Source: Bilabrum cf. latius
Lineage: Eukaryota
Direction: 5' to 3'
Assembly (NCBI GenBank): GCA_965178125.1
Contig: OZ237741.1
Coordinates: forward strand, 372,001 to 436,000
Length of the DNA: 64,000 nt
The translations under genes were made by a program, and so were the position numbers. The notes under the pieces are model-generated. The model saw only the letters and a program-made list of their open reading frames with translations, was not told where the DNA came from and ran no database searches. Shown here one piece after another: positions 2 to 64,000 of this stretch (within the stretch, counting starts at the first letter, position 1; every line of letters starts with the position of its first letter).

Positions 2-1558
2 GGCGCTGTGCACCGAGCCCTCGTGGTGGGAAGCGGCAAACAAGTGGCAGTGAAGCGCATCATGCTGCCCGAACAGTTCAGGAAGCAGTGGCGGGCGGCT
101 ACGGCAGCAGGCTCGGAAAAGCCTGAACTGGGCGCTGCTGCTGAAGTGAAAGCGGCCGAGTAGCTACGATCTATGCTGGAGTAGCAGATGGACAGTGCGC
201 GTGGTTCGGCAGGAACGGGCTGGAGTCCAACCTCATCTAGGAGCACCCCATCCACAGGGCCGACCGCGAGGCAACCCTCGGCCACTACTTCGGACAGCAA
301 GTCTCTTTGGATTGGTGGCAGGAGTTCAACATATGGAAAGAGCCTGAAAACAAAACATGCTGGCGCTACCGGCGATGACAATGACCACAGAGGCAGGTCT
401 GATTCGCGGGAGACGACCCCGAGCACGCTGCACGCACTCAAGCGCGTGCTGAAGACCAGCGGGTCGGCCGCTGCCACGGAAGTCCGCGAGATTTTGCGAG
501 AGGTTGATATGTTGCGCAGGCTGAGACACCCCCACATCGTGCAGTATCTTGGTGCTCGCGTGTCGAGCGATGGTGGGCACCTGGATTTGGTGATGGAGCT
601 CGTGGACGGTGGGACCGTGTCATCCATGCTCAAGGACTACGGCCCCATGGATGAGCAGCTCGCATCTGCTACCACCAGGCAGCTCTTGCTGGGCCTGCAG
701 TACTTACATGACAGGTGCATCATGCATTCTGACCTTAAGCCAGCCAACGCGCTGCTGACTTCGGGAGCTGTGGTGAAGCTCGCGGACTTTGGCTGTGCCA
801 GGCGGATTGACGGCCTGGTCAACGGCACTCTATCATCCACTTCTTCCAGCGAGTTGTCTGAAAGCAGGGCTGGGACCGGTGCGAAGAGTTCTGGGTCAGA
901 GTCGGGGAAGGCCTAGACGAAGCCAAGCTCGCGGTCTATTCGGGGCACGTTGCCGTACATGGCGCCAGAGGCAATCCGGGGCGAACTCACTGGACTTCCT
1001 TCCGATATCTGGGGCGTGGGTTGCACGGTCCTCGAGATGCTGACCGGCACTATGCCATGGATTGACCAGTTCGACAACCGCATCGCGCTGATGTTCCATG
1101 TCGGGCACACCAGCAACCATCCTCCTATTTCAGACGCGATCTAGGGCCAGGCGCGTGACTTCCTTGAAGTGTGTATGCGCGCCGATTCCAAAGAGCGGCC
1201 GACCGTCAGCACGCTCCTTGAGCACCCTTGGATCCGCAAGTATGCCAGCAGCTCACGGCAGGGGCTGCGCTCGGTCCTGTCCTTCAAATCTACCGGTTCA
1301 TCGGTACATGGCTCGGAGGCCGTCGGGTCGAAGGTTACGCGAGGCTCGCCCGGATCGTCTGGACAAGCGGCAGCGCATCTTGACGAAAGTCACGTTGATG
1401 TCGGGGCGGTGCCAGCCCTCAGCCCGGGAGCTACTTCAACCGAGGCCGGAAGTTGGAGCCCTAGGTCGCTGCTGGCTGTGGCGAGCATGGTCCGGAAGTT
1501 GCGTCGAACAAGACGCCGGAGAGGTGCTTCGCCCGTGTCACAGGAGTCACGTGGATAA
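2..1558 (+). CDS. Ser/Thr protein kinase, STE11/MAP3K-like (5'-partial; TAG=Gln)
   Basis: One frame from nt 2: GAVHRALV..QVAVKRI, REVDMLRRLRHPHIVQYLG, HSDLKPAN, VKLADFG, GTLPYMAPE, SDIWGVGCTVLEMLTG, ERPTVSTLLEHPW. Interrupted only by TAG at 161, 182, 914, 1142; ends TAA 1556-1558. Confidence 0.9.
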
Positions 1559-1706
1559 ATAGTCAGAGCGAAAAGTTGTTTTTAGATCTAACCACAATTA
1601 GGAACAGATCTGATTAGAAAATAACCTCGCAGTGCACTTAGTTTCAGGCCTATGCTAGCTGATCACATATGGTCACTTCCCACGCAAACCCAAACATTTC
1701 CAAAAC

Positions 1707-4700
1707 TTATTGCTAGTCTTGATCCTCCTCCTCGCGCTGCCTTCTATTGAGAACACCAAGCGGCCCTGAGGGCTCGAACTCGTACCTGGACGGGTCCAAG
1801 AGGATGCTTGACTGACGTCTTTGCATCCCGCTCTGCTGTGGGGCCGGCGGGTCCGAGGCGGAGCGCCCTGGCCGCACAGCCGCACTCCCCGCTCCTCCGC
1901 TGTGTCCGCGCTACTCACCCTCTAAATCTCTCACGATAATGATCCCGTTGTTGGCAAGGAAGTGCCTCACGTCGTCCACCTCCCCGTCCCTCTCACCACC
2001 AACGACACCACTGGCATCACTGTCGGAGTATCCAGCTCCAATAGCGCCCGCTGCCCCCGCACCAATCACAGAATGCGCACCTCCTCGATGCATCTCTACC
2101 AGGCGCTGTTGCTCCCTAGCCAGTTGTCTCTGTCGCACCGCTTCGGCCATGCTAGGTGTCTCTCGGATGATCTGCTCGTCCGTCAGCTCCCACGGTGACC
2201 GGATCGCGAGCATGCTTCGAGTGCGCCCGGCACATCTACCCGGAGTAGATGGCGCGGACCGCACGCCTCCTCGCGCGCTGTCCGAAGAATGCTGTCCCAG
2301 GATAGAGCTCGTTTGAGCCTCTGCTCCCGGCTTACTCCCTGCCGTGGGCAGCTCAGACTCAGTAGGTTGAGAGTCTCCGTCGGTCGTGCCGACGTACATG
2401 GCGGCACCGTCTTCTTGCACAGGGGTGAGCGTTCTCCCTCTGTGCGCGAGTCGGCCTGGAAGAGCACTGTGCCTCCTGGATCCCACCATGCCTGGCCTGG
2501 ATGCAGTCCCCGCAAATCCAAGGTACTGCATCGTGTTCTCGTCTAGGTCTCGAGACGACATGACCCTTGGCATTGAACGTCGCTGTCGCTGCCCCACGGG
2601 AGGCTGCATGAGATCGTCTTCCGTAAAAAGAGCCACTTCTGTGCCGGCTGCAGAGGCATCGCTGGATGCGGACTGGCGCCGGGATCTGTCTCCCTAGTCG
2701 GGCGCCGCGCCTGTGTCCGTGCGCCCTAATGCGGCACCGACCGGCGCTGTCCCCTTGCGCAAGTGATGGAGGTCTGCGCCGCCTGCAACGGCAACACCAG
2801 CAGCATTGGCACTTCTCGCGGACAGCATCTTTCCAATGGAATCGTCCGGCATGTCCGCTGTGTGCCCGTGTTGGTGCCGCCGAAGCACAGCCGTCGAGAA
2901 CCCACCGAATCTCCTGCTCTGCAGTGGCGCGATTGCAGCAGAGTCCTCTGGAGATTCAGACCTAGGTTCTGCTCCATCGGAAAGTGGCAGCGACTGGGAG
3001 TCAGCGCGAGCTGTTGCGGGTGGAGGAGGGGTCATGGACGAAGGGCCACCTTGGACCGATGCCACCACGCCCGCCTCGTCGTGGACTGAAGAGGGACCGT
3101 CAGACGCAGACGTACCCAGCGCTAGCGGGGGCACTCTTGGAGTGCCATCCGAACTGCCTGCTCGGCTGTGGCTATCGGCGTCTTTGCCGAACTGTGGCAG
3201 GAGCTGGGGTGACAGCCCAAAGTCGTTCACCTCTAACGTCGACGGCGGTCGCTGCGCCTCCGATGCTAGCTTGCTGTCTCCGGAAGACGGCGAAGCGTCA
3301 GCAGTGAGATCGGGGCGGATGCCAAGCCTCGTGCGGTCTCTGTCCCCCGCAGGGGCCGTGTCCAGCCTGCCTACCTTCGGCGGTAGCTTGCCACCGGTAG
3401 CAGCATTCTTTCCGGTTGGTCGCTGCTGGGAGTCTGAACGGGACCGACCCAGCTCAGTCAGCTGCACTGGCCCCTTGTCTTCCTTCGCACTCGGGTCGCC
3501 TTCTGCAATTGGCTTCTCTCCAATGATGGGCTCGGTAGCTTGAGTGTCTCTTGCACTCACACCAGCACCAGACACAAGCGCGGATCCCTCCGCACCACCA
3601 GCGGCAGATCCAGCTGGTGGTGGCACGGCTCGGGGTGGAGGTCTCGGGGGATTGATTGGACGTGTTGATCTGTGCGAGTCCCAATGCCCGATCGCCCCTC
3701 CGATATCTTCATCTCTAGAGGACTCATCCTCGTGGTGCCACAGCTGCACGACGCTCTCGTCGTCCTTGGTGTTGATCGTGCTGTGGCCGTCGCTGTTGGT
3801 ACGTCGCGCCCGACCTGGGAATTCGCCAGGCGCGCTGCTTGCAGCAGCTGCTGCAATGCCGCCAACGCTGCTCTTCGCTCCCATCTGTTCGTCTCTCCGA
3901 ATGAACTTGCCGAGCCCAACCAGTCCCGTGGGCAGCTCAGAGGCAGGCACGCCGCCCATCTCGTCGTCTCGAGCATGGTCCACAAACGAGTCCCCTGCTC
4001 CACCCCTGCGCAGCCGACTGCCCATGGCAGAGCCACGATGCCTGCCAATGCTTTGCCGAACAACTGCACCATCCCTCGGCCGCTTGCCAGGATATTCTGC
4101 CGCGTCGCTGCTGACCCGGGCCCTGGCTTCAATGTCAGCCGCGGGCTTGCGGTCGCTCCGCCAGCCAGGCTTTTCGTCCCCATAAAACCGCATGCTCTGG
4201 TTGCGCCAGAGCTGCCGACCTGGACCACCACCCGGCACTGCGCTCTGCATGCGCCGCATGCGGCCAGCAGCACCGCCACCCTCCATGCTAGAACCCCCTG
4301 CTGGTCGCATTGACAACATGGTGGCCCTTCGGGCGAGATCGCTCGGGGACTTCCTGTCGCCATGGCCCAGGAGACGCTCGTTCTGGCGGTTTCTGTCCAC
4401 CCACGGCTGGCTCACCATGAGATCCGACGCCAGGGCACTGGCAGCAGCGCCACCTAGGGTGTGTCGCCTTGCCTTGCCGCTACCTTCGTTGCTGTTGCCT
4501 CCCCAATCGAGAAGTTGGCGAATTCCACTCGCAGTACGGGTCAACAGCAGCCTACCATGGGCAGCGATGGATCCTTTGCTTGCCGCAGCCTCGTCCATTC
4601 TCCTCTACAGCCTGTGCTCTGCCTCCTCTTCCTCTTTGGTTGGTAGCAAGCCCCTCCTCTGCTGGTGTTCAATCCACTGCGCCATTCCCAGAATGTACCG

Positions 4701-6119
4701 CTCCACTACTTCCGTCTCCCACTCAGACTCGTCCAAATCGATGAAACTCTGAGCCAGCTTCTGCCGCAAGCTGGCCAGGATGCGGGTGATACGCATCAGC
4801 GGCTTCACGACGAAATAGCGAGTCTCTCTGTCAGACAAGACTATCGATAGCACCAACACCACCAACACCACGGATACATACACCAGGTTGAAGACCGACC
4901 TGGCGTCAGACTCCGACTTGATGTCGAACGTTATCTCGTCGCGCATGCCCAGCTGCTCGATATCCACTCGGAACAGGTCGGAGCATCGCACATTCTCGAG
5001 GTTCGCGTCTCGGTACTAGGTGCCGTTCAGTCTCACTCGCATAAAATCGATGCCAGTTATTGAGTCAACCGTACTGATAGCGTTGTCGATCGACCCCAAG
5101 TCGATCGCAGGCTTTCCAGCCATGAAAGCAAGGAGGCTGGCGATGGATTCCTTCCCCCGAATGCTCTGCGTCTCGTTGACAGCAAACGGTAGCGTAATTG
5201 ACAGCAGTAGAATGATGTAGACCACACGAACACTCGATAAGAAAGCCAGATGCCTTCCAATCCGCGTGGCCTGCGTGCTCTTGTCGGCAGACAGCTCGTC
5301 CCCCATGGCCTCGTCCAGCCTCTGCTCCTTCTCCTCCTCTGCATTCGGTCTGCACCACTGTGTGACCACTCCGAAGGCTTTAACGAGAGCGACGAGGCGG
5401 AGGGCGCGCACCACCCGGAGTGCTCTCCCGCCTTGGCGGACGAGCCGAAGCGTGCGGCCCGCTTGCGTCACAAAATCGTTCGATTCCACCACGCTCTCCG
5501 CACCGCAATCGCCACCCCCGCCGCCCTCAAACAGGTCACCGTATGGGATAGCAATGGCGATGGAGACGGTAGCAACAAGGTCAAGGACCCAGAAGAAGGA
5601 CAAGAAGTACCCACGGCGAGCGAGCGATGCCAGTACGATCTCGACAGCGAACACGCAGACGCAGATGAGCAGCAGGGAGTTCACAATATCGTCAGACCGC
5701 CGATCTGAGGCCAGTTGCGCGATGTCTGGAGCAAGCAGGGACACAAGGGTTGCGCATGAAGTACCAATGACTACCCATTGCTGATCAAGTACGTCCTACA
5801 GGCAGTTTCGGGACTCGGCAGACAGCCAACTGGTGCTGCAGATTGCCTCGGATACACCAGCAGCGCCGCAATCACAACAATCATCATCCCCTGACGAACT
5901 CCGAGCTCCAGTCATATGTTTAGTAGTCTTCGTATTCAAAGCCTGGCTTGCAACCCACCTGGCACTGTCCTACCTGTTTAATAAGACGTCAATGTCAGGG
6001 CTCTGTGCAGGCCGGTTTGCCAATGGCATCTTAGCTGGCTATGATGGTTGCTGCTCGCGAGTGGCAGCCGTACCATCCTTCTATTCACTGGACTGGCTGC
6101 TCGTTGTAGCCTGTTTCAT
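1707..6119 (-). CDS. Membrane protein with voltage-sensor-like ion-transport domain resembling the N-terminal half of protist ion-channel/adenylyl cyclase fusions; long low-complexity C-terminus (~1470 aa; TAG=Gln)
   Basis: ORFs 5016-5744, 4605-4991, 2694-4598, 1911-2636 are in one frame joined by TAGs; ATG 6119, TAA 1707-1709. Motifs VFAVEIVLASLARRGYFLSFFWVLDLVATVS, Arg-rich S4-like RTLRLVRQGGRALRVVRALRLV, VVKPLMRI, WETEVVE. Start codon uncertain. Confidence 0.7.
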
Positions 6120-6415
6120 GTCATAAAGACGCACAAGTCGCGGGGAGTTTTTGGTGCCCACCGGTCGATTCGTAGCTAGTAGTTACAAAATGGGCCTCGG
6201 AAAGCGACGCACCTGAACGAAACCACCACTGCTTCGGAGATCGATTATTCCAAACCTTTCAAACAACGGATTGGTGTTATCAAACAACCTATTGCTCTCA
6301 ACTACAGCGACAATTCTGATGCGTAGATTTAACCGGATTTCGATGGTTCACGTAGTAACGAGTAGTTAGAAGCGAAGAATGGAACTTCGCCCGCACAAAC
6401 ACTTTAATAGCATTT

Positions 6416-9400
6416 ATGACAGATGCGGTCGACATATCGTTATCAAGTATGTCTCAATAGCTCTCGGTTGGCAAAGATCCGTGTATCTCGACTCGATTCA
6501 ATCGGTACGTAGTTTCAACGTCCGGCAGCACACCACTCTTGACTGCGCTTAGCGCTGGCAACAAAGCGGCAGCCTCGGCCCTATTAAAGCATGGCGCAGA
6601 CCCATATATTCTTGGGTCTGACCGGCTGTCTGTAGTTCACGCGGCTGGAACTGGTGGTCTGCTGGAACTGCTCGAGCAGTTGCAGTTGCCGGCAACTTTT
6701 ATTCAGCTGCAAACTGTCGCCGGGAACACGCCACTTCATGCAGCGTGTTCTTCGAATCAGCTTCACTCTATCGACTGGCTGCTACGGAAAGGCGCAAATC
6801 CCAACCGAGTAAACAGAAAGTATAATACTCCACTGCACATTGCTGCGGCAAGCGGACACTCGTCCGCAGTTGCGATGCTTGTGCAAGCTGGGGCGAACCC
6901 TCGGGCCATTGGAGAGCATGGGCAAACTGCAATGCATATGGTTTCGAAGAAGGGTTCGGCAGGTGATGTCATCGGTGTTCTGAAAGGTTTGCAACAGAAA
7001 CAGCAGATTGAGGAGGCTGCCAGCGGTGCTTCTCAACAGGCTGTTGCCCAGAAGGGCCTGGCACTGGCAGTGGCCAGGGCAACCAATGCTGATACAGCAT
7101 GTGCGTTGCATCTTCTGAGTGTCCGAGACGACTATGGATGCACGCCGCTGCAGGTTGCTGTGGAGGCTCACAACATAGCTGCGGCAGGCGCCATCATCGA
7201 CGCAGCTTTAAGCTGCCGCCCCGTGGTATCTCAATCGGGCGGACGAGCCCCCGACCCCCGACCCACCGATGCATGGACAACTGCTACCGACACGAATGGT
7301 GGATCAGATGGTGGGGACCCGCTTACGGTCCTTGGCATGATTGGAGCAGCACCCACGGGTCCCGCTGCCATCATCTCAGCCGCGGCCCAGCAGAGCACCG
7401 CCAAGCTCACATCGACGGACTTTCCGCTCGTGCGCCCTGGACTAGACCGACTGCTACACACGCTGTGTCAGTCGTCTGCAGCCAGTGCGGTGCGAGACAT
7501 GCTAAGGCAAGGAGCCGACCCCTTCACCGTGTGCGAGCAAGGCACCTCGCCGCTGCAGAAAGCGCTGAGCCTAGGGCACGGGAGTGTGGCTGATGCCGTG
7601 GTCGACTGCATGGTAGCGGGAGCCAAGACCGACGCAGACAAAAGAGACCGCTTGAAGCAGCACATTGAATCCTCGATTGAGTCTGAGGGGGGCGGCAGAG
7701 AGCTGCTGGCTGTTGCGATTGCGCACATGTCGACCAGCCTGGTGAGGTATCTTCGTCAGCTAGGCGTGGGCCTGGAGCCGCCCGACTGCAAGGTGGTCCT
7801 TCCAGCCAGTAAAATGAGGTCCAAGAAAATCCTGCGGAAGTCACGCAAAGGCGTTGTTCCAGCCAGTGCTGGTGAAACCAGGAAAAAGAGACCGTTAGCT
7901 GCCTAGGATGGTTCTCTGGCTGCAGGTCTGGGCGAGCGCACGCACTTTTGCACTGTGTGCAGCAAGCGGTTTAGGGACGCAGCTCGTCTCAATAAGCACA
8001 TGGCTTTGGTGCACAAAGGCGCACCTCAGTAGGGTGGTGGAAAGTTACCATCCACATCGAAACCTGGACCAGCGATCGTGCGCCCTTTACGCAAAGGAAT
8101 GGGTATACAATCGAGGGTATTGGGTGGGCCTGAATCTGTGCACAGATCCCAGAGAGCCGCAAAGCCACTGCGAATTGACCGATCGGGATGTGGTACGGAA
8201 GCACCGGAAACGGTAGTTGGCCGCAAACTTGACGCTAGCCCCATCTCTAGCGACGAATCAGCAGACCCGAATCCATTCTCGCAGAAATCTGCCGATACCC
8301 AGCCTTCGCATGGCCCGCATGAGTCACCGTCATAGAAGGAGCCAGTTCCTGCCACGTGTGAGCTCGACATGAAGGTGCTAGCGCCAGCACCTTCGCATGA
8401 TCACGAGGCTTGGAATAACTTACTACCTGCACTATCTGTCGTACAGAATAGATCAGTTCGGACCAAAGGGCCCCTTCAGACTGCTTCAGACTTGGATCGG
8501 CTGTCCTCGTGGGAGGCCCAGCCTCCCACTGACGCCAATGGCTCATCGAACACGGTACGCGTCGAGGACGGGTGGGTAGACAAGCAACTCGCTGGCATGC
8601 TTGGGACTGGCATTAGGCAATCGGCATTCATTCATGCTATTGGAGGCAGCTCCCTTGCTGTTCTCAAAGCGTTGCTCGAGTCAACGTGCGCGAGCGCTTC
8701 CGTCGATTGGGTGCAGGTCCTCCTGGCGCGACCTGGAAAAGAAATTGGAAGGGGCTGTTGCCACTCGATTGCGCGAACCACTCCACTCGATTTTGCGGTG
8801 CAGATAGGCCGCGCCGAGGCCGTCAGAGTTTTGCTCGACTCGATAGTAGGCAACGGCGCAGGATCACAAGCTGCCAAACCGCAAGGTGGATCGCAGATCA
8901 GCATAGTTACTGGGATCGACAACTCCGACAAAGTAGGCCCAAGCAGCGGTGCAGGTACAGGTGGTGGGCAATCATCGTGTGGATCCGCAGTAGCCGGGCT
9001 GGATGCATTGGAATCAGAGCGTCGTGATAGGCTTCGCTGGTCAGCTTGGAAGTGCCTCGCACAGCAGAACAGAAGCGAGTGCTCACTTGTGTTCCTTCAA
9101 TTTCTAGGCGACGAAATTAAGGAATTAAAGGGGGGAAGTGACGGTGGTGTCCCTGCACTCGCAGCTGCGGTTTGCGGGGGACAAAATGCCACTGTGCGGG
9201 CACTGCTGGATGCAGGCGGTGTATCGGCCATTCGTGCTGCGCGGGAGGGCTTGTACGGAGGGTTCAACTTGCTGCAGCTCGCTGCTCGGTGCAAGCAGTG
9301 GGAGACATTGGTCTACCTCGTGGAAAAGCTGGAAGCTGTCGACATGCTCTCCGTGCCCATGACTGGACTTGGCCCGTACGACCGTGCTCCGCCCACGCAA

Positions 9401-10348
9401 TTCGTCACTGAGTTCGATTCGGTCCCAATCGATGCCAAGGCTCCGAGGCCGACGCCCGGCAAAACAAAGAGGAAGGCAAGGTCGAAGAGAGCCGCGGCGT
9501 CGAAGAGCAAGCTTGCTCCTGTGGAGCATCTGTCGCATCAGGAGCGGGAGATGGTCGCAATGAAGACGACCCCCCTAGGCATCGCTCTCATCACCTTGGA
9601 ATCCAGGGCAAAACAAGTGCCATCGGAGCTGATCTGGCTCGCAAAGAAAATGCCTGTAGTAGGTCCGCAGCTTGTCCACTTCACCATCGAAGGGCTGTAC
9701 AGGTCACTGAAGTCGTTATAGACAAGACACACTAGAAGCAAGGTGCGTGGGTTGGCCAGCTGGGCCAATTTGCTGGCTGTTCTTCTTGGCAAGGGCACGG
9801 GGCTGCATCCTTTTTACGACGATGGAGTGGACTAGTACTAGCCTGCCCATCTTGCTGAGGTGCTGTGGAGGATTAATGGTCGGGGTGTGGGGTCAGCTCT
9901 ATATCCTGTCTTGGACTCGTATGGGGAAGTTGCCTTTGTACCCGAGGCGTTTATGGGCACGTCAGTAAGTGCATTAAGAGCTGCAGGCGCGAGTGTCGAT
10001 GAAGTGCTAGATGAGACCAATAAGCTGAAGAATGTGAAGGTGAAGGAGGAGGAGGAGGTGAAGGAGGAGAAGGAGGAGGAGAGGGAGAGCGAGAGGGAGA
10101 GGGAGAGGGACGGCAAACTGGACGAGGCCAAGGGCAGTGCATCTGCCAGGGACCGCGGAACTGGACCGCCGGCCACCGTAGTAGCTCGCTTGCAAGATCC
10201 GCTTCCTGCTCTGTACGCCATGTGCGGCCCGTCAAAGTCCGGCAAGCTTCGGTTTGGGTAGAGGGTGGCTGCTTTTGCCGAGAGGGAGCTGGTGCGATTG
10301 CGCGTGCGTGCGATGGTGCGCTTTGCTGCTGCAGCAAGATCAGTATGA
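6416..10348 (+). CDS. Ankyrin-repeat protein with internal C2H2 zinc finger (~1310 aa; TAG=Gln)
   Basis: ORFs 6539-7906, 8078-8335, 8369-9721, 9860-10261 share a frame, joined by TAG; ankyrin motifs GNTPLHAAC, NTPLHIAAASGH, GCTPLQVAV; FCTVCSKRFRDAARLNKHMALVH at 7946-8014; first ATG after upstream TAA is 6416; TGA 10346-10348. Confidence 0.8.
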
Positions 10349-10430
10349 TGGATGCTGCCACGGATCTATCAACATTGCATATTAAAGAGTTTACAATTAT
10401 CTGTGCACGGAACATCCCAACGTGTCGCAG

Positions 10431-16300: not shown

Positions 16301-16441
16301 TATAACAATTTCGTCCTGGGTAGTAAGTACTGTTGGATTTTTGCTGGCAGTGGGAAGGAAAAATCGACAAGAAAGCTTGTACGGTGTGATGAGCAGTTCC
16401 AGCACGGCCTATTTTCTGGCAACTTTATCGTATTTGGCGCC

Positions 16442-24887: not shown

Positions 24888-25073
24888 TAAAATATACCAC
24901 GCCCTAAGATTTATTATTTATTGCTTTGGGGCGATATTGGGGATCGCCAGTTCCATGTGCTGGTCTGGTTTTCATATAAGCACACGTAACCATACAGAAA
25001 TGTCGGGGAAGAGTCCAGCGAACTGTCGAGCCAGACTGCCTTTGCCAGGTTAGTTACATTCCGAACAACAAGC

Positions 25074-28888: not shown

Positions 28889-29475
28889 CTGCGGGGATTC
28901 ATAGCGGTGATTGACACATCTGGTTCCGGTTCGGTGACACTGCGTTCCCTCCCGACCTCGGAAAGCAAGTGTTAACACTAACAACGAAAAATTCAATACA
29001 CATTTAGTCCGATTCTGTCGATAACTGGCAGTAGGCAGTCGTGCGTACTGAACACCAAGAAACACTACGACGACGTGGCGAGCATGTTCTGGTCGCCAAA
29101 CCACGATTGAGATTGCATGAAGTAGTAATTCAACTCAACCGATCAATCATTTGAACATGAATACGTCAAAATAGTCACACCAATCATCCACTGCTTGCTC
29201 GCAGCGAGCTATACATGAGGCCAATGCCAGCTGGGATAGCAGCACCGACAACAGCATCGACCAATCCACTATAATCCGGGTCAAACAGGGGTGAAAACGC
29301 ATGATAACAACCAATGAACTCCCAATAGAAACCCAAGAACTGCTCACACTTGCTATCGGTACCTCAGTGAAGCCGAAAATGGATGCAGGCGACCAAAGCT
29401 ATGAAACAACACGTTATTAAATTCGAATTGGGATGCATTTTATACAAATTTTGCTCGTCTGCAAGCTGTCTTGCG

Positions 29476-33235: not shown

Positions 33236-33406
33236 GGCAAGCAATTTTAATTTATTGCGTCAGGGATGGTGTCTTTCAAGGAGTGAAATGATCAAGTTCA
33301 TGATTGGCACAGCAATGCACTGCACCTTTCCTGGGCAAGGCCAAAAAAATTGTAGCTGCGGTTGAATGCGTCCGAAGAAACTTGTTGACGACGCCCTGGC
33401 GTTTTC

Positions 33407-38119: not shown

Positions 38120-38280
38120 GATAGTAGTAGGGATTGCGGCAGGTGTCGCAATTCGCGCCTTCTACTGCACTGGAAAAAGTGCAAAGCAACTGTGCCGCAC
38201 GGGGGTTCGCTTGTCTATGCAGAACGTTCCGAACAGCGAAAGGTCAATGCACAAGAACACATAAAATACGGAACGCACAG

Positions 38281-49100: not shown

Positions 49101-51007
49101 ACTTACGCACTTTGGAGGCGTAGTCTGCGGACGGCAGGATTAGCGCCCCTGTCATGCGACTCGCCCGACATAGGTTCTTACTGGACACGTTGGGGACGAC
49201 AGTGACCCCGCAGCTGATGAGCAGCTCCATGGCCTGCGCTGATATTGGCCCTGAGCACATGATTACGTCGGGCTGAAGCTGCAGCAGGCGCTACACGATC
49301 TCCCTTTCGTAAGCCGCAGGGGCCGCCCGTTCCAAGGCATCGTCGGCGAGCACTATCCTCCTCTGGGCGTCCTGGCCGATCTCGTCGTCCACAAGCAGGA
49401 TGGCAGGGTCAGAGATGGACGATCGCATCTGCTTGTGCGGGAGCTGCTGCCTCCATGCCACGCCATCAACCACGCCACACTTTCCGATCCAAGTCTTGGG
49501 TGGTGGCCGGCTCATCGTCCCGCCCTTGCCAGCACTCGGGACTCTATCCTCGCTTTTGCCTGCTGCTTTTTGAACAGACTCTGGTGGCCGGGCGGCAGGC
49601 GAATCTGGGTCCGTTTCCGAGTCATACTCCGCGATGGGGCCGTTGGAGAACCGGGATGAACCCGGTCCAGGCATGGCCTTGTCGTGCCGACGGGGCACAG
49701 ATGACCCGGCTGCCTCGTTCTCTACCGCATTCGCGATGAATCCAGCCAGGCCTGCAGCCTGCGCCACGGACCATATTTCACTGGGTAAAGCCTCCTCTCC
49801 TCCCCTGAGACACTTGATTTTCACGTAGGGCCTTACGTCTTTTCCATCTCCGATGCTCGGATCTGGCTGCACGGTGCAGGCAGCGTGTCTCGCAAGCATC
49901 ACGATCATTGACACCCAGGCCCTCAGTCGAGCCACGCCAGCTTCCCTCATGACAGGAGATGTCGTGAGCAGACGGACGACCACGTGACCTGCGATGAGTA
50001 GCGTTGCAATCGAGGTCGTGCGGGCCGTAACGGGGAGGTAACGGGGCTTTCAAGTCAACGGCCAAAGGACTCGGCCACGCACGGGCTGACAGCAGGAAAC
50101 TACGATCAAGGACAAACGCGACGGCCGCGTCGCACACTTTTCTCACAAAGGTGTCTTTCAGCTCTCAGTCGCAGCCTTGCAGCGAGAAGAACTTCCTGTG
50201 GCCGGACGGGGGGCCGCAGCGCAGTGAGCCCCTGTCTTGACCCAGTCACGCTCGAGCTGAAGGACCGGGTGAGGCCTTGCACGCTGTACCTGAGGTCTTT
50301 GCCGCTAGCGATTGCTCTAATGCTTCTCAGATACGATCTCGTCTGCTGCTCAGCACTTTGGCGCGTGCTGCCTCCAGAGGTGGTGCCGGATGCAGCAGGC
50401 ACGTCGTCCACCGCGGCCACCTGACTGCCAATCCCTGCTCCAGCAGTCGCATCAGGTGTAGATGCAGGTGTCGCCGGGGATGTGTGTAGCAACGGTGATC
50501 TTTGCTATTGAGAGCTTGCAGTCCCAGACAACTTCTTGGCTGGTGGCCTTATCCTGGGAAGGCTCGGTGGCTGAACATCCTTGGAATCTAGAGCCGAGAC
50601 GTGCTACTACAGCTTGCTCGCAGTTTCCCGCCGTTCTGCAGCACTCATTGCTGCCAGCCTATCATATCCAATCAGGTTTGTCCCGTCCGTACCACCGTAA
50701 CTCTCTTCAAACTTGACGCAACGCCTGCAGGCTCTCTCGGATTGGGACAATCCATGCAGCGTCCCATCTAGTCTCTCTGCACTGCAATTGCTGCAAAATA
50801 TCTGCGAACAATATCGATGATATAGAGTAAGTCGACAACACAGTGGAACTTATCTCACGTGCCGCGAGCACCCGAGTTGCACCTGCTTACTCTACCACAG
50901 AATCTACAGTGATGTTTTCGGAAGAAAAACGTAAAATCCGTCCCACAATCCATGCATTTGGAGCAAAGAGAATCGGGCATCCAAAATGCGTGCAGAGGGT
51001 CGCCCAT
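40141..51007 (-). CDS. FAB1: 1-phosphatidylinositol-3-phosphate 5-kinase FAB1/PIKfyve (FYVE, Cpn60/TCP1-like, PIPK), ~3540 aa; introns 50802-50890 and 49989-50146 (TAG=Gln)
   Basis: FYVE FWMPDSLCSKCMDCGTDFTFFFRKHHCRFCGR|IFCSNCS..RACRRC restored by splicing; DVRPYVKIKCLRGG, TLLVLEGC..GITILLRGG; kinase QFHALR, GGKSGAGF, FDLKG, MDYSLLLG, GLIDYMRRY; ~23 TAGs, no TAA/TGA; TGA 40141-40143. Confidence 0.92.
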
Positions 51008-51189: not shown

Positions 51190-54100
51190 ATGTCGTCAGA
51201 GAAGCGCGCATTGCTTGGAGAAGATAATGGAGCTGCCGCTGGTGGCTCTCACGGAGGGCACGGAGACGAGAAGCAACGCGAGCAGGCGATGTTTGAGCGT
51301 GTAAGTAGCTTTGCCTCCAATCACCAAGCATTTGGTCTTCCGCATGTGACTGCGCCGCCCTTTGAGGCTGCAGGGGTGCTTCATTTGTTTTAACGTTATG
51401 TTTGAACTGCGCGAGACCCCTGTTTGGGTTGGCTTTCACAGTCGGTGACGCTGCGTTGATGTGCCCTGAGATTATGGATCGGTTCAGCTGGATCTGCTCC
51501 TCGAGCCGTGTTTGCACCTGCCCTTAACGCAAGCGTGTCCCCAGCTGGAAGCATCAGTTAAGTAATTTATCCAAATTCCATATTTTCCGCAGGGAAACAA
51601 CTTGAAGGAGACAGGGCTCTCAACCGGTGAGATCGATGGACTTCGCGAGCAGTGGGGCTTCAACGAGCTTGAGGAAGAGGAGATCAACCCTTTCCTGCAG
51701 TTCCTGGGCTACTTCTGGGGACCCATGCCCGGCATGATTTGGGCCGCTATCATCATCGAGCTGGCCAAGGCTGCCTCTGGAAACGGTGGGTGGGAGGACT
51801 TCGGCGTGCTGATGGTGCTGCAGATCGTGAACGGCACCGTGGGATACATTGAGGAGATGAACGCTGGCAACGCCATCGCTGCCCTCAAGGAGAAGCTCAA
51901 GCCCCAGTGCACCGTGGTGCGCGACGGCCGCGCCTTCAAGCTCGACGCCAAGGAGCTCGTGCCCGGCGACATTGTCGAGATCAAGCTGGGCGACGTCGTC
52001 CCCGCTGACCTCATCCTCCTCGGAGACGTCAACGACGTCGAGGACCAGCTGCAGGTGGACGAGTCCGCCCTGACGGGCGAGTCTCTCCCCGTGACCGTGC
52101 ACGCCTCCAAGAAGCTCAAGATGAGCGCCATGATCAAGCAGGGCGAGGGGCACGCCGTCGTGGCCTACACGGGCAAGCACACCTTCTACGGCCGCGCCGC
52201 CGAGCTCATGAAGATCTCCGACGCGCAGGGGCGCTTCCAGAAGATCCTCTTCCGGATCACCCTGGGCCTCCTCTTCCTGTCGGTCGTGCTGTGCATGGTC
52301 ATCCTCATCAAGCTGCTCGTGGCCACCAACTCGGGGCAGAAGGCCGGGGAGTCATCGCTGGATTCGGGCCGCAAGTCGGACCGTGTGCTCGAGGCCATCT
52401 CCATCGTTGTGGTGCTGCTGGTCGCATCCATCCCGATTGCCATGCAGGTCGTGTGCACGTCCACCATGGCCGTGGGATCGCGCCGCCTGACCGAGAAGAA
52501 GGTCATCGTGGCTCGCCTGTCAGCCATCGAGGAGCTCGCCGGCATGACCGTGCTGTGCTCTGACAAGACCGGAACCCTGACCAAGAACATCCTGACCCTC
52601 AACGCGCCCATCATCTACAACAAGGACTGCACCGAGGACCAGCTCAACTTCTGGGCCGCCCTCTCTGCCAACTTCCGCTCGACCAACATGGACGCCATCG
52701 ACAAGTGCGTCGTGGACCGCGCCGGTATCCAGAGCGCCCCTCTCAACCTGGCCACCATCAAGGACTCGAGCAAGTACCAGATCACCAAGTACATCCCCTT
52801 CAACCCCACCATCAAGAGGACGGAGGTGCAGTGCAACACTCCCAATGGATTCCTGCGCGTCACCAAGGGCGCCCCTCAGATCGTGCTCAACATGGCGCTC
52901 GACTCCAACCCGAACAATGACCCCGCTCTCGGCGACACCGTCCGCGGCCAGATCCAGGACCTGGCGGAGCGCGGGTACCGCGCCCTGTCCCTCGCCATCT
53001 CTCGCACCCCCGAGGGCCAGGAGCCCGTGTGGGAGTTCCAGGGCCTCATCTCCATCTTCGACCCCCCGCGTGACGACACTATGTCCACCATCAAGGAGGC
53101 CGTGGCCGGCGGCGTGGAGGTCAAGATGATCACCGGTGACCAGAAGGCCATCGCCGTCGAGACCTGCAGGCAGCTCGAGATGGGTACCGAGATCTTCACC
53201 ACGGACGTGCTTGACGACCCCTCCGTCTCGCCGCAGGTCATCAGCGAGCGCATCTACCACGCCAACGGATTCGCGGAGGTCATGCCCGAGCACAAGTTCA
53301 ACATCGTGCAGGCCCTTCGCGAGCGCGAGATCGTCGTCGGTATGACCGGTGATGGTGTGAACGACGCCCCCGCCCTCAAGCGCGCCGACATCGGAATCGC
53401 AGTGGAGGGTGCCACTGACGCCGCCAAGGCCGCCGCCGACATCGTGCTGACCGAGCCTGGTGAGATCATTAATTGTTTCGCATGACGTGCGTGCGCTGTT
53501 CGCTTGCCCGATGCGCTGGCATCCACCGGGAGGATGAGGCTTCACGATCGTGACTAGGCTATCCGTCGGGCGCATCTCTTATCAACTATCAACTAATCGC
53601 GCCCGACGATGAGCCCCTCACACCTTGGAGAACTGACCGGATGTCGGCTGCTGTTAAGCCTGCATGTTGCTGGGAGTATCTATGCACAATCAGTGCACAC
53701 GTGTGCCATGCTCTCCTTACTACCCTTGTTTGTGCTTGTTAGCGTCTCGCAGGCCTGTCCGTTATCATCGACGCCATTCTGCGATCCCGCAAGATCTTCC
53801 AGCGCATGAGAAACTACGCCATTTACAGGATCGCGTGCACCATCCAGCTGCTGTTCTTCTTCTTCTTCGCCGTCATCTCCATCGTGCCCACACAGAGCAC
53901 TTTCTACGGTAGCCAGGCCGGCACCGAGGCGGAGGGCTACCCCATGGCGGCTGGCCCCGCCTTCTCCCTGCCCGTGATCTCGCTGGTGATCATCACCATC
54001 CTGAACGATGGCACCATCATCACCATTGCCCACGACAAGGTCATCCCCGCCAACACCCCCCAGAAGTGGGACCTGTGGGAGGTTCTCGTGATCGCCTGCG

Positions 54101-54855
54101 TGCTCGGCCTCACCGCCTGCGCCGGCTCTATGATCCTCCTCGTGTTCGCCATGAAGGCCAACTTCGCGGCCACTGGATAGGCCTACGGTGGAACTGGCCC
54201 GCACGGCGTCGAGGGTACTGGACAGGAGGACGAGAGCTTCTTCCGCCACGTGCTGGGCAGCGGCCAGACCCACTGGATCACGTACGGGCACGTGCAGACG
54301 ATCATGTACCTGAAGATCTCCCTGTCGGACTTCCTGACTGTGTTCGCCGCACGCACCCGCGGCTGGTTCTTCGAGAGGCGCCCCGGGTACGCTCTGGCCG
54401 CCGCGTTCGTGTTTGCCACCTCCTGCTCTACCATCCTGGCCGCCTTCTGGCCCTTCAAGGAGTCCTCCAAGAGCGCCGCGAGCAAGGGGCACTACGAGAT
54501 GCAGCCCCTCAAGGACAGGGCCTTCGCCATCCTGACCACCTGGATCTTCTGCCTCCTGTTCTTCCTCGTGCAGGATGCCATCAAGGTGGCTACCTACTGG
54601 GTGCTCGACCAGCTGGACGAGAACCGCCAGCGCATCGCCGAGGTGGAGCGCAGGGCTGCCCTCACCAACATGGCCGCTAGCGAGGCCCGCGGCCAGGGAC
54701 TCATGACCGTCGGTGGCGCCGGCGGCGCAATCTCCGCGGGCGCGGCCAAGAAGTACGACGACCGCATCAGCAAGCTGGAGCGCGAGATCCAGCAGCTCAA
54801 GGGCATCCTGCAGCAGCAGGCCGGGGGGGGTGCCGCCGCCGCCGGCGGGCACTGA
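51190..54855 (+). CDS. PMA1: Plasma-membrane H+-ATPase (P3A P-type ATPase), 1026 aa; introns 51301-51592 and 53460-53752
   Basis: FWGPMP, LVPGDIV, DESALTGESLPV, IPIAM, LCSDKTGTLT, TKGAPQ, DPPRDDT, MITGD, MTGDGVNDAPALK, spliced TEPGLSVIIDAILRSRKIFQRM, ILNDGTII; single TAG 54178; TGA 54853-54855. Confidence 0.96.
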
Positions 54856-56214: not shown

Positions 56215-59200
56215 ATGTCAGCTTATACTGAGGTCAGATACTATAACAGTACTGATGTTGGCTTGAGCGTGAGAGTGTTCGTGTCGCACATGGACACTCT
56301 TGAGTTCGATCGGTTGGTTGATGCTGCGCAGCCTCCTTTACCGAAGCCAGGTTACGTGCTGAAGGATGGATACGCTGGGGATGTTGATCCTGAAGACTGT
56401 CTAGTATCATTACAAATTGATAATGGTGGGATCGGTATGGTCACAACACCGGCTACTACGCAAATATTGCCACGCCGTTTTGCTGGCAGGGTCTGCTGGG
56501 AGCAATGGGTAACCCTGCCATTGAGATTTTCGGATTTGACACGAAGGTCTAAGTTAATAATGACTCTGTGGTCTCCCGGTCCAAGGCTACTTGCTGGAGT
56601 AGTGTTCAGTCTTTTTGACGAAAAGATGCGACTTGCTGACGGAATGAGAAAGCTCATTTGGTGGCCAGTTAGAGCCTCCTTTAAGGAGGCCTACCTCCCC
56701 GAAGCAGGATAGAAAGAAAGTACGACCCACGATCCGGTGGAAGATGTCGTTGAAGCAGCCATGGACGCAACTTGGGCGGGGTATGCCTCCAGGGTGCCGG
56801 ACCACGCCACGGACGAGGAGTACCTGGCTAGCCACATCCTGGAGCTCAGGGACCACGGCCGCATACCGAAGATACCATGGCTGGACAGATTCACACTGCC
56901 CATGTTGGAGCAAATCAGGGCGGGGACTGGGCGCCCCGGGGACCTTCCAATTTCGATCCCCGGCATGGGCGACGGCAATGCTGCTGGTGATGGCCGCAAG
57001 TCTGCAGCTGCGGCAGGCACCCCACCCGCTGATCGTGCGACAGCAGCTGCAGCATCATGTTCAGGCGAATAGAGCACACCTGGCACTGATTCTGAATCCA
57101 AGTACGACCCGGAAGCCACGGCTCGCATGAAGTCGGCCATGGCAGGCCTCAAGCCGCGGCCTCCCTTCGTTCACATTGAGCTTCCGAAACTCCCATACCC
57201 AGTCATCTATTACGATGCCCCCGCGCGGAGACAGGACGACGTGAGGCACAGCGGTGTAGGCACCGACGTAAGAGAGTTCCAGATGGCTGACGTGGCGGAG
57301 GCAGTCGAGGTCATGGCAGACGCGCTCAAGAGGGACCCGGTCGTACCCCCTGCGCTGCTGCCGGGCAACCACGGCGTGCCAAGGGCATCGCCCATGAAGC
57401 CGCTCAGAGGCCTCAACAGGCATCGACGTGGTATCAGAGCCAGTGCGCGGTCGCGCAGACGCCAGGCAGGATCAGGATCAGGATCAGGGGTCGATGCAGA
57501 ATCCGGCGCACCTGATGCGCCCGTTGTGGTTACTGCGCCTGGCGTGCCACAGGGGGCAGCGAGCGCAGCTTCGGGGGCCGCAAGTTCAGAGCTTACGAAA
57601 CCCGTGGCGGGTGCGACGGGTAGCAGTGGCGCTGCGGCGGGTGTCAGCGCCGGCAGAATAGCGCCAGCTGCTGCAGAGGCCAGCCAGAACAGAGCTAGCG
57701 ATCCTGCCAGCGGGAGCGGGGCCGCCCCACGAGAGACGGAAGCTAAGTCAGAAAACGATCAGGTCAGGCGCTACCCCGTCATGTGGAGATAGCGGTACGA
57801 TATCATCGCCGACCCTGAGTCGTACGGCAAGACCCCAGTCGACGCCATGGAGGAAGTGCTGGCTTCGGCTCTTGCTCGCGAGATGCCAGATGTACCAGAG
57901 CACCCATCGCCTTCGCAGCAAAGGCAGATCGAGCAGATCATCGCTGCACAGGGCATTGTAACGGAAACAAAGGACGCGACTCTACTCTGGAGATTCAGGC
58001 ACAGCCTGGTCTCGAACAAGCGAGCCATCGTCAAGTTCATGGAGTGTGTCAGGTGGCATCAGCCCACTGACGCCGAGAGGGCTCTGTCGCTGCTGCCGCG
58101 CTGGGCTGCCATCGACGTGGAAGAGGCTCTTTCGCTGCTCTCTCACAAGTTCAAGCATCCTACCCTGCGAGAGTATGCTGTCAGGGCATTAAATCGCGCG
58201 CCCGACGATGCTATTCAGCTGTACCTGATCCAGCTGGTGCAGGCTCTACGGTACGAGCCCAGCTTGCTGGGGCTTAGCGGACAGGCATCTGTCAGTGATC
58301 TAACGGGTGGTGGTGCAGGAGCTCCAGTGGGTGACCAGGCCAGGCTGGTGCAATAGGCCAAGCACATCCTCGCGACCGAGGGCGTGGTGCCGGGGCAGCC
58401 CGATGGCACCGGCCCCGGGGCATCGTCAGGTGCAGGGGCAGGAGTTTCGCGTGCTGTCGCCGGTGCCGGTGCCGGTGCCGGTGATAGCAACGATGTTAGT
58501 TCATCGGCACAAGATCATGGATCTGGTCAGGCCGCCAGCGGGGATGGCTCGTCAGGCTCGCCCTTGCAACGAAGCCCCCTTGCTATGTTTCTGATTCGAC
58601 GGGCATGCAGGAGCCTTCCTATCGCTACATATCTGCATTGGTACGCTACGGTCGAGACTAGCGACCCGCGCTCAGGCCAGCTGTACAACGATTTCCTGGC
58701 TGCGCTGTTCGCAGAACTCCCAAACTCGGCTGAAGGCCGTGCAATGGAGATGAAGCTAATGAAACAGGCCGAAATCAGCATGATGATTCTTGGTGCGGTA
58801 GCCGAGTGCAAGAAGATGGGACCCAAGTCAGAGAAAAAGAGACGGTTGAACGAAAGCTTGGAGCCGCATGGGTAGTACGGGAAGCACCTGTCAAACATTC
58901 GAGGTGGAGTCCACTTGCCGCTCGATCCCAGGGTAGTCCTGGTCGGTACAGAGCCCGGCAAGTGCAAGGTGTTCAGCAGCGCGATCTACCCCGTCTTGAT
59001 ACCTATGCGCGTCGACCACACCAAGTCCGAGCCTGGGTGGCACCTCACCAGCACAATGCGCTTCAAAGCAGAGGCGAAGGCGAGAGCAGCCGCTGTATCG
59101 GGCCAGGCACAAGGTGGTGCGGCAGCCGGCGGAGCGGCGGCTATGCATGCAAGCGGAGCTGGTAGCGCGGTTGGCAGCGTATCAACGACACTATCCAGGA

Positions 59201-60021
59201 GCACTGGCATGGGCGGCTCTGACTCGGCCTCATTGCCTCCCCCGCCCACCTACGATGTGATCTTCAAGATTGGCGACGACATGCGTCAGGATTAGCTTAT
59301 CCTGCAGCTGGTGGAGCTCATGGACCGTCAGCTGCAAGCGGAGGGCCTCAACCTGGGCCTGACCGTGTACAAGGTCCTCGCCACGAGCCTAACCACGGGC
59401 ATGATGGAGTGCGTGCCGGGGTCTGTTCCCATGGACCAGATCAAAAGCGACATTTTGGGGTATTTCAAGAGCTTTCCTGAGAACGTCGACCCCAGAGAAG
59501 ATCATGGTGTGAAGGCGGAAGTGATGGAGCGGTATGTGGACAGTTGTGCGGGGTACTGCGTCATCACGTACATCCTTATGGTCGGTGACAGGCACTTCGA
59601 CAATGTGCTGGTCAGGTCAACCGGGCACATGTTTCACATCGATTTCGGGTACGTCTTTGGTGCTGAGCCCAAGTCCTTCCAGCCGAAAATCAAGCTGACA
59701 TCCCAGATGATTGACGGGATGGGCGGGCCCAAGTCCAAGTACTACGAGAAGTTCCTGGACAGGTGCTGCCAGGCCTACAGCATCGTGCGCAAGAAGGCGA
59801 ACCTCTACCTTGCCCTCCTGGACCTAATGCGTGACGCCAACATCGAGAACATGGGCCCTGATCCTGACGCAACCATCGCCAAGATTCGAGACAAGTTTGC
59901 CCCGCAGCTCGACGGGGAAGCCGCCGACCGGGCGTTCCTGATGGAGCTGGACAATGCTGTCGCCGCATTGTTCCCGCACTTTACTGACTGGATCCACACG
60001 ATCGCGACTAGGCTCAGGTGA
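56215..60021 (+). CDS. VPS34: Class III phosphatidylinositol 3-kinase VPS34, 1268 aa (TAG=Gln)
   Basis: C2 WEQWVTLPLRFSDL, helical domain LLWRFRH..LYLIQLVQALRYE, kinase VIFKIGDDMRQD[TAG]LILQ, SCAGYCVITYILMVGDRHFDN, FHIDFGY; 6 TAGs; TGA 60019-60021. Confidence 0.95.
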
Positions 60022-60897: not shown

Positions 60898-60929
60898 CTA
60901 GGTCAGTTCGACTACCTTGCCCTGCTTCG

Positions 60930-61666: not shown

Positions 61667-61972
61667 ACAGCTCGCCTTCTTCACCACAATCGGATGCCTA
61701 TGCCCAGATCTTGACATATTCATTTTTTATTTTATCATCTTGGAAATATTTTCATAAAGTTGAGTGGATTCGTCCCAGTACGAAGCACTGATGGCTGTCC
61801 CTCCGATCACTGCAGGCGGCGAAAGTGAGCCGTGGTATCCTGCCGCGGAAAAGGGTCTATTTCCCCATACTCAAAAGTCCTCGGTCACTTATTTATGCTG
61901 CGGATGCAAACTGTGTCCTGGCGTAGCGAATCACATGGAGACAAGCATGAATTAGGTCCACCCAGCGCCCGA

Positions 61973-64000
61973 TCAATCCAGCACCCCAAGTGCCCGCAGC
62001 TCTCGAACCCGGTCACCGAACCGCTTCTCAAGGAGCTCGTGCAGGGGTGCCATCCGTTCTGGGCGTACCTGGGCGTGCAACTGCAATGATGACTCGGCTA
62101 CCTGCATCTGCTCTCGCAGCGCTAGCCTGAGGCAGCTCACCGCGTCGTCTTCTATGCGTTTGCCTGCTGCTACCAGGGCGTTCACGAGCTCCAGCTTGAA
62201 TCGCATCGCGTCGCTTGCCTCGCTTGCTCGGCTTCTTGACAGCAGTGAAGAACCCATAGCGTAGTTTGGCACCCCGCCACTCTTGCGACGCATCACCACC
62301 GCGCCACCAGTTGCGGCGGATGCCGTGCGTCCGCGGTCCACGCCCAGCGCTGTCTTCAAGGCCGACTGAATCGTCGACTCTCGGGTCAACTTCAACTCGA
62401 TGAAAACCTCAGCAGCTCTACGGACATATGCTCTTGATATTTCAGGAAACATGGACTAGTAGGACTGCTGCAGCATGGCTGGAAACCTGCTCGCCCCGCC
62501 TCCCACCCCTGCATCGATGACCCCTTGCAGCCGCATGGAGAGCGACTCTGCGGCTTCCTTGCCCTTGTTGGCCGCCTCTCTAGTCGCATCCTTCAGACGA
62601 AGGGTGCCGGTGGACACCTGCTCAAGCGCGATATCCAGAGGCGTCAGGAGTTCCTCCTCCACGAGCAGGACAGGCGATCGCCGGCGGCAGCCAGGAAACG
62701 GGTGCATGCTAGCCAAGTGCGTCCGCCGCGCCCACAGCACCAAGAGCTCTTGGGCACCGCGCACGTCTGCTGACAGCGACTACAAGAGCTACCCCTTGAT
62801 CTTGGGCCTCAGCTTGAATGGACGATACACCGTAAACACTCGCGTGCCGCTAGAGATGGCACCATCACGTACTATCTGAGGCAGAAGCGACTCAGAATCT
62901 GGCAGGAGCATGCGGGTAGGAAACATGTCAGGGTTGTATGCAGCTTCATCCGGCCCAGCTGCTTGCGACTGGTCGAAATCAGGGGCTACTGGTGACCCTG
63001 CACCATTCACGTCCTCTTCCTAGTCCTTCTCTATCTTGAGCTCGTCCAGTACACCCTGCGCGATGGCGGCCAACCGGCTGTAGCCAGGCACGCGTGCTCT
63101 CACCTCCATGCGAAACGCAGCGCTCGACTCCTCACGCACCTAAACTATGCCACCTGCAACCAGTCGCTGCGAAGCCTCCAGCAACTCGGCCTCGCTCGCC
63201 CGCTCCGCCGCGTTGTCGTCCATTGCCTCAAGAAGACCCTCAATCCTCCTCCGCACGTCAAGCTCTGCCGGCTCGGTCGACAGGAGCCCGTATGCCAGGT
63301 CACGCCTGGACGACCCGTACTTGCGCGAGCGAATAGACGCGTCACCCTCAGTGGATCCGCCCGATCCCTGGGCTGCCACGGCACCTCCAGCGAGGTGGTC
63401 CGTCCTCGACTCATCCGATGCTCCGATGCGTCCGAGCGCGGCCTGAAACGGTTCTTTCCAGCAGCCCGGCCACCTCTTCTGCAGCCTTTTCTCGAACTCA
63501 CCAATCCTCTCTTCCACAGACCCCTTAAGTATGAACACGCGGCCCTGCACCTGAGGAGGGTACTCATCCCCGCTGAACACGACGATGTAGTATTTGGCCT
63601 ACGCCCTGCGCCTGCCGTAGATCTGCTTGGTCAGGTCTGCCTGCTTGCGCAGCAGCGAGACGACCCTGGCCCCGCTTGGTTCCACTCTCTCATATCTCTC
63701 GCAGAGCGTCCTCGCGATTCCTCTAGCGTGCTCCCAGCACTGCGCCTGCTCCAACTTCGCAAGTGAGACCTAGAGCACAATCTCGAGCCGATCGCTCGCC
63801 GTCTGCTCCGGAAACAGGACGACGTACTAGCTCGTGTCTAGTCGCAGCAGCTGCCGCCTGGACTTTGAAGTCTCTTTCGCTGCCACGTTGATGAGTGCAG
63901 CAGGCAGCCTGTGCTTGGTCCACATTAATAGCTGCGGGATCTCAAACCAGTACCACGGCGGAGGTACCCCGGACACTGCATCGGCAAGCTCCATGAACCG
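61973..64000 (-). CDS. DOCK-family Rho/Rac GEF, DHR-2 domain (5'-partial; TAG=Gln)
   Basis: QAQCWEHARGIARTLCERYE, YYIVVFSGDEYPPQVQGRVFILKG, FTVYRPF, FPGCRRRSPV..EEELLTPLDIALE, LSMRLQGVIDAGVGGG; open to the window end with 8 TAGs; TGA 61973-61975. Confidence 0.85.

Follow-up and report, generated by a model that had tools for sequence, protein, structure and literature searches.

Evidence for a nuclear genetic code with UAG as glutamine and UAA and UGA as stops in a GC-rich, intron-poor protist

Reassignments of stop codons in nuclear genomes are rare. The available excerpts of PMC11687900 and PMC5304391 state that UAA and UAG usually change meaning together, and they list UAR read as glutamine (Gln) in many ciliates, Ulvophyceae, Hexamita, Streblomastix and Amoeboaphelidium protococcarum. 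A change of UAG without UAA was unknown until 2017 and is still limited to few cases in these excerpts: UAG alone is read as Gln in Iotanema spirale, Protocruzia tuzeti and two phyllopharyngean ciliate lineages (PMC11687900, PMC5304391), as Leu in the rhizarian exLh and as Ser in Scotinosphaera (PMC11687900). The present work concerns the 64,000-nucleotide stretch of contig OZ237741.1 from position 372,001 to 436,000 (hereafter the window, with coordinates counted from its first letter), whose genes hold numerous in-frame TAG codons. An earlier note, made from the letters of this DNA, had proposed that UAG encodes Gln here while UAA and UGA remain stops, and its summary of the literature agrees with the excerpts cited above. 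The proposal is borne out by invariant Gln columns at TAG sites, by the lack of in-frame TAA and TGA, by spliced contigs that carry TAG, and by CAA or CAG at TAG sites in relatives. We regard as highly probable a nuclear code with UAG as Gln and with UAA and UGA as stops, in a GC-rich and intron-poor protist. Such a code is of a rare but known kind, and the reassignment of UAG alone to Gln is real here.

The closest described system is I. spirale, which in the excerpt of PMC5304391 (Panek et al. 2017) shows the same table, with only UAG changed to Gln and UAA kept as stop; however, it is an unrelated anaerobic metamonad, whereas the organism studied here is GC-rich and has a VPS34 that lies near those of Cafeteria and oomycetes. 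The same UAG-only change has arisen repeatedly in P. tuzeti and the two phyllopharyngean lineages, according to the excerpt of PMC11687900 (McGowan et al. 2024). Unlike these, the present organism is a non-ciliate: about 19 genes lie on a contig of 64 kb (212 kb in the DNA run X1 described below) with a GC content of 55-62%, and Cafeteria and Aphanomyces are the neighbours of its VPS34. The earlier note had likewise found that the genome does not look like that of a ciliate. In genome style it is clearly neither a ciliate nor Iotanema-like. The UAR codes (table 6 type) also turn a stop into Gln, presumably by means of a suppressor-like tRNA-Gln, but here UAA is not sense, with none seen in frame against about 11-14 expected. 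Amoeboaphelidium is the best named match of the ABCC transporter of the window, with only 38% identity, and is therefore a different organism. In exLh and Scotinosphaera UAG is likewise uncoupled from UAA, although the residue here is Gln. TAG is also Gln in crAss-like phages with code 15, according to the excerpt of PMC9523058; however, the window is eukaryotic nuclear DNA with GT..AG spliceosomal introns and eukaryote-specific genes. A phage or prokaryote origin, with code 15 or pyrrolysine (Pyl), was ruled out by the eukaryotic domains and the spliceosomal introns.

Reading frames and residues at TAG sites

When TAG is read as sense, the longest stop-to-stop frame of the window grows from 994 to 3302 codons, and the three longest frames change from 994, 655 and 639 to 3302, 1784 and 1537 codons, followed by frames of 1491, 1329 and 1295 codons. 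The longest frame remains at 994 codons when the one codon read as sense is TAA or TGA instead. The merged frames encode recognisable full-length eukaryotic proteins, including Fab1, SNF2, ABCC, VPS34 and others. The genes to which the following results mainly refer are:

18064..22533, plus strand: ABCC/MRP transporter, 1489 codons, 7 TAG, terminator TGA.
32657..33259, minus strand: PPIL3-type cyclophilin, 3 TAG, terminator TAA.
33407..38170, minus strand: SNF2/RAD5-like helicase, 1587 codons, 7 TAG, terminator TGA.
40141..50992, minus strand: Fab1/PIKfyve, at least 3530 codons with the start not located, 23 TAG, terminator TGA; its FYVE exon lies upstream of the merged long frame.
51190..54855, plus strand: P-type (H+-ATPase-like) gene, 3 exons, 1026 codons, 1 TAG (54178), terminator TGA.
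56215..60021, plus strand: VPS34 (class III PI3-kinase), 1268 codons, 6 TAG, terminator TGA.
61973..64000, minus strand: DOCK-family protein (DHR-2), C-terminal 675 codons, 8 TAG, terminator TGA.

In-frame stop codons were counted in three gene sets of increasing strictness. The first consists of 25 greedy, non-overlapping frames of at least 150 codons delimited by TAA or TGA, some of which are spurious; it has 19,422 codons with 118 in-frame TAG and no TAA or TGA, and its terminators are 19 TGA and 6 TAA. The second contains the 16 frames with a positive codon-usage score (16,596 codons, 92 TAG), which end in 13 TGA and 3 TAA. The third is limited to six coding sequences (CDS) verified by homology and/or transcript contigs, with 9,092-9,096 codons and 47 TAG, and shows neither TAA nor TGA in frame, as had been claimed from the sequence. 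In these six CDS, the counts in frames 0/+1/+2 are 47/46/72 for TAG, 0/23/30 for TAA and 0/186/185 for TGA (118, 53 and 371 out of frame, respectively). TAG is therefore equally common in and out of frame, whereas TAA and TGA are kept out of the reading frame. The statement of the earlier note that all 19 genes contain TAG is nearly right: the H+-ATPase gene has only one, and an expressed 67-codon open reading frame (ORF) at 55639-56095, on the minus strand, has none.

Long low-complexity inserts rich in Ala, Ser and Gly are seen in conserved proteins of the window (56215-60021, 33407-38170 and 40141-50049), and most TAG codons are within such inserts. VPS34 has 1268 residues, compared to about 850-900 in most of its matches.

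The nine sites cited in the earlier note (22051, 21292, 22330, 59293, 37775, 36347, 32945, 32921 and 16163) are all TAG codons in the peptide context given there. For the homologue searches TAG was masked as X, and each masked column was then tallied for the residues present in 120 homologues. In ABCC, Gln is found in 120 of 120 homologues both at 22051, in the Q-loop, and at 22330, and in 93 of 120 at 21292. VPS34 shows Gln in all 120 homologues at 59293, and cyclophilin in 119 at 32945 (GS-Q-F motif) and 75 at 32921. Across the three alignments, 10 of the 16 TAG sites fall in columns where half or more of the rows have a residue, and in six of these ten Gln outnumbers every other residue. 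Summed log-odds, calculated in a Codetta-like manner, were +16.0 for Gln and at or below −25.5 for every other residue, Asn being the next best (−25.5); applied as a control to the Q, E, K, L, Y, W and S columns of the query itself, the score returned the right residue each time. Furthermore, in PDB alignments of the SNF2 helicase, Gln is found at 37775 (Q motif) in both printed rows that cover the site, and position 36347 pairs with Gln in Rad5 and with Asn in the archaeal homologue 1z63. The PDB alignments of the RCC1-repeat protein, the kinase and the ubiquilin-like protein reached only variable TAG positions, or none.

Relatives of the organism provide further evidence. A library search with the DOCK C-terminus found the short fragments P0365, P0366 and P0369, which are 91-97% identical to the query. 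P0365 stops just before query TAG 287 and P0366 starts one residue past it; in the same way, P0366 stops just before query TAG 515 and P0369 starts two residues past it. These breaks are as a standard-code gene caller would yield if the relative, too, had TAG at both sites. The end of P0369 coincides with an ordinary Gln in the window. At the six other query TAG sites spanned in this relative, about 95% identical, five residues are Gln. In addition, one locus, L001 (3,888 nucleotides, nt), turned up when JGI metagenome contigs were scanned; over its whole length this contig is a single frame of 1295 codons with 8 TAG and no TAA or TGA. It shares 366 of 512 aligned residues (71%) with the window protein, and at the TAG sites of the window it has one TAG in common, CAA or CAG at two sites, and AGA, ATG, TCG and AAG at four. 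The in-frame TAG of these relatives indicates that TAG as sense is a property of a small clade, and the exchanges of TAG with CAA and CAG indicate that it turns over like a synonymous CAR codon. The frame of L001 runs off both ends of its contig, and its DOCK-family gene is therefore longer than 1295 codons and intronless in this span.

Transcript contigs, termination and alternative readings

Seven sequencing runs contain at least half of the sampled words of 51000-60021, none of them listed as RNA, and four (X1-X4) contain all and may be its source. The run X1 and the runs X5, X6 and X7, the last three from two studies, were compared over 40100-60050 (19,951 bases); the RNA type of X5, X6 and X7 is a guess, and they were treated as transcript-like for their spliced joints. 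X1, a DNA run, shows 40100-60050 in one unspliced piece. The contigs of X5, X6 and X7 skip five GT..AG segments of 158, 89, 292, 293 and 98 nt, which agrees with the intron sizes of about 90-290 nt given before; two of them are the Fab1 introns 49987-50144 (158 nt) and 50802-50890 (89 nt). Contig depth differs about 20-fold between neighbouring genes. Given the spliced joints and the uneven depth, X5, X6 and X7 behave as transcript assemblies. The two introns of the H+-ATPase gene are nearly equal in length (292 and 293 nt).

The spliced Fab1 mRNA corresponds to a 10,655-nt contig of X5 with no differing letters, and VPS34 (56209-60050) is covered by a 4,008-nt contig, also with no differing letters. 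Over the 19,951 bases a single difference is listed, C>T at 57161 in X6. The same TAGs are found in contigs of four runs from three studies, and no splice joint falls at a TAG site. Since the spliced contigs of X5, X6 and X7 keep TAG unchanged, the TAGs are not spliced out and, at the consensus level, are not edited.

Gln codons in the six CDS are 264 CAG, 60 CAA and 47 TAG, so that TAG represents about 13%, and its share is 13-15% in ABCC, SNF2, VPS34 and Fab1. In the H+-ATPase gene, TAG and CAA each account for only 1 of 45 Gln codons, and a GC content at third codon positions (GC3) of 0.89 indicates extreme codon bias; this gene has the highest contig depth in 40100-60050, about 20 times that of its neighbours. 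The base that follows TAG is unbiased (15 G, 11 A, 10 C and 11 T). The TAG share, its avoidance in the H+-ATPase gene and the unbiased next base fit a complete reassignment with TAG as a minor codon rather than context-dependent readthrough. UGA is a commoner stop than UAA. Wherever the C-terminus of a gene is conserved (ABCC, VPS34, SNF2 and Fab1), homology continues past the last TAG up to the TGA. The confident frames that end at TAA are the kinase, the Ion_trans-domain protein and the cyclophilin, and further TAA or TGA codons are found close behind these terminators. UAA and UGA are taken as the stops, actual termination at UAA being indicated indirectly.

In the proposed mechanism, ribosomes would read UAG as Gln, and UAA and UGA would still end translation. 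TAG behaves like a little-used synonym among the Gln codons: the gene with the highest expression avoids it, and close relatives swap it freely for CAG and CAA. By analogy with other stop-codon reassignments, decoding would depend on a tRNA-Gln(CUA), or on a tRNA-Gln able to read UAG, and on an eRF1 which would no longer recognise UAG but would keep UAA and UGA. The tRNA-Gln(CUA) would probably derive from tRNA-Gln(CUG) by one anticodon change.

Several observations weigh against this reading of the code. Six of the 16 TAG sites are in mostly-gap insert columns and carry no information (two in ABCC and four in VPS34), and some columns favour other residues: Ile 84 and Gln 18 of 120 at one ABCC site, with another ABCC site variable, Lys 62 and Gln 8 of 120 at the third cyclophilin site, and Phe 56 and Ser 33 of 120 at one VPS34 site. 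A TAG site of the kinase is Ser in both MAP3K rows of PDB, and one of the ubiquilin-like protein pairs with Thr in ubiquitin in a PDB alignment. Distant DOCK homologues are variable at all TAG columns, one of them with Phe 53, Tyr 28 and Glu 23 of 138, and Glu is found at one of the six spanned TAG sites of the close relative. The evidence for termination at UAA is thin, with three to four genes whose C-terminal tails are unconserved. The runs treated as RNA are assembled contigs of guessed type, and X5 was flagged as "probably DNA" yet is spliced; furthermore, contigs hide minority variants, and TAG may be partially edited. A tRNA scan found no tRNA gene in the 64-kb window, nor was there an Rfam match, and eRF1 is not among the genes encoded there. 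The support comes from DNA, alignments and transcript contigs.

The alternative that survives best, although we consider it improbable, is an ambiguous UAG, read as Gln within genes and as a terminator at some gene ends according to context, as in Condylostoma or Blastocrithidia. Only about 20 genes are in view, some with unconserved C-terminal tails, and the delimitation of frames by TAA and TGA would mask a TAG terminator. However, no examined gene needs a TAG stop, given the homology up to TGA in ABCC, VPS34, SNF2 and Fab1, and the H+-ATPase gene, judged by its frame alone, is open for 224 codons past its TAG up to TGA. A look for context-dependent decoding through the base that follows TAG gave no bias.

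Very little credence is given to the reading in which both UAA and UAG encode Gln (table 6 type) and UAA is too rare to be noticed in a GC-rich window. As a trinucleotide, TAA is indeed less frequent than both TAG and TGA (199 and 223 occurrences on the two strands), and the joint change of both codons is the usual one in the excerpts of PMC11687900 and PMC5304391. However, if the TAA:TAG ratio is assumed to equal the CAA:CAG ratio, the six CDS should contain 10.7 in-frame TAA and none is seen (P of none 2e-5), or 13.9 when L001 is included (P 9e-7), while the same CDS hold TAA 53 times out of frame. In addition, 3 of the 16 confident frames end at TAA, with more TAA or TGA close behind.

The two weakest alternatives can be put aside with near certainty. 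That the TAGs are not translated, and instead stem from errors of sequencing or assembly, mark pseudogenes, lie in tiny introns or are edited to CAG in the mRNA, has nothing positive in its favour except that contigs could mask low-level editing, and it conflicts with the recurrence of the same TAGs across four runs from three studies without joints or differing letters over Fab1 and VPS34, with the relatives that carry in-frame TAG, and with 118 TAG in frames that hold no TAA or TGA. That UAG encodes another residue (Glu, Lys, Leu, Tyr, Ser or Trp) has the precedents of Leu in a rhizarian and Ser in Scotinosphaera (excerpt of PMC11687900) and the single Glu of the close relative, but it is hardly credible against the log-odds, the four columns with Gln in 119-120 of 120 homologues and Gln at five of six sites in the 95% relative.

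Other genes of the window

The remaining features of the window are the following:

2..1558, plus strand: protein kinase, 5' end cut by the window edge, 4 TAG, TAA at 1556, Pfam Pkinase 3.6e-51, with MAP3K-like matches in PDB.
1707..6182, minus strand: Ion_trans-domain protein, frame of 1491 codons, 9 TAG, terminator TAA.
6359..10348, plus strand: ankyrin-repeat protein, 8 TAG, terminator TGA.
13559..16570, minus strand: RCC1-repeat protein (Pfam RCC1), 8 TAG, one of them at 16163-16165 in AEG-TAG-LG.
24990..26702, plus strand: Serinc, 2 TAG, terminator TGA, Pfam Serinc 2.5e-65.
26925..29134, minus strand: ubiquilin-like gene with ubiquitin, UBQLN1 and UBA domains, over two frames, 2 TAG.
29371-31884, plus strand: long TAG-containing frame, 837 codons, 11 TAG, no Pfam match, low coding score.
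38281-40140, minus strand: long TAG-containing frame, 619 codons, 6 TAG, no Pfam match.
55639-56095, minus strand: small spliced ORF of 67 residues, no TAG, TGA stop, 98-nt intron, depth 120 in the X5 contig.

MRNIP and further ankyrin-repeat proteins are also encoded among the merged frames, and one small ankyrin ORF has TAA as terminator. The kinase and Ion_trans genes are convergent and both end at TAA, with their stop codons 148 nt apart (1556-1709). For the RCC1-repeat protein, the repeat motif G-Q-L-G-L-G is seen in the RPGR rows of PDB used for comparison. The frames 29371-31884 (plus strand) and 38281-40140 (minus strand) may be lineage-specific genes or non-coding sequence.

Lineage and significance

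The best matches, from metagenome or Logan proteins, reach at most 60% identity for cyclophilin, 44% for ABCC, and 55% over part of the sequence for VPS34, and no named organism that has been sequenced is close. Among named sequences, VPS34 is matched best by a EukProt transcript (GECG01, the second-best match overall), by Cafeteria and by Aphanomyces, with animals and fungi behind them. In a maximum-likelihood tree of VPS34 with 28 rows, the window sequence groups with Cafeteria and one metagenome sequence (SH-aLRT 98), within a 14-row group that includes Aphanomyces (SH-aLRT 100). This tree was made with 27 of 120 matches, from which most vertebrates were dropped, and alveolates, rhizarians and other groups were absent among the matches; its query branch is long (1.01), and four rows, including Cafeteria, are of skewed composition. 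The tree weakly suggests an organism near Cafeteria and oomycetes, and a placement as a Bigyra-like stramenopile would be a lead, not a result. A search of the ESM Atlas with the ATPase exon gave generic P-type ATPase clusters only, with no taxonomic signal.

The runs with zero to one differences carry three coded organism labels, A for the DNA runs and B and C for the transcript-like runs. About one fifth of the words are found under a fourth label, D, as expected for a relative of about 95% identity. Strain naming, co-culture or contamination may mean that the true source is not the organism on the label.

The earlier note had gone further and suggested an independent, undescribed origin of the code. 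This is plausible but not proven, with one gene tree with a long branch and a literature search that gave no report to draw on. That search, aimed at this code in stramenopiles, flagellates and new lineages, found no nuclear UAG reassignment in stramenopiles, a 2024 stramenopile review included, with most subscription journals and all supplements outside its scope. As the public runs date from 2025, a description may already exist or be in preparation. We tentatively propose, short of calling it probable, that UAG-only reassignment to Gln arose independently, and so far unreported, in a GC-rich heterotrophic stramenopile-like lineage near bicosoecids, and that it is common to a small clade that includes the congener of about 95% identity and the environmental relative of about 71%.

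Every independent origin is a test of what couples UAG to UAA: a mechanistic constraint set by eRF1 and tRNA wobble, or a mere tendency. On the practical side, standard-code gene callers split the genes of this organism at every TAG, and since the fragments P0365, P0366 and P0369 begin or end exactly at TAG sites, proteomes of the organism and of its environmental relatives are mis-annotated in public collections; assemblies or bins that contain it need translation of the table 15 type. The rapid turnover of TAG against CAG and CAA among close relatives provides a route to study how a newly captured codon spreads. The interest of the finding depends mainly on the lineage and on whether the code has already been described. 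If the independent stramenopile-like origin is true, this would be the first example of such a code beyond ciliates and fornicates, and the organism, with both DNA and transcriptome data, would be a tractable system in which to study how recognition of UAG and of UAA by eRF1 separates.

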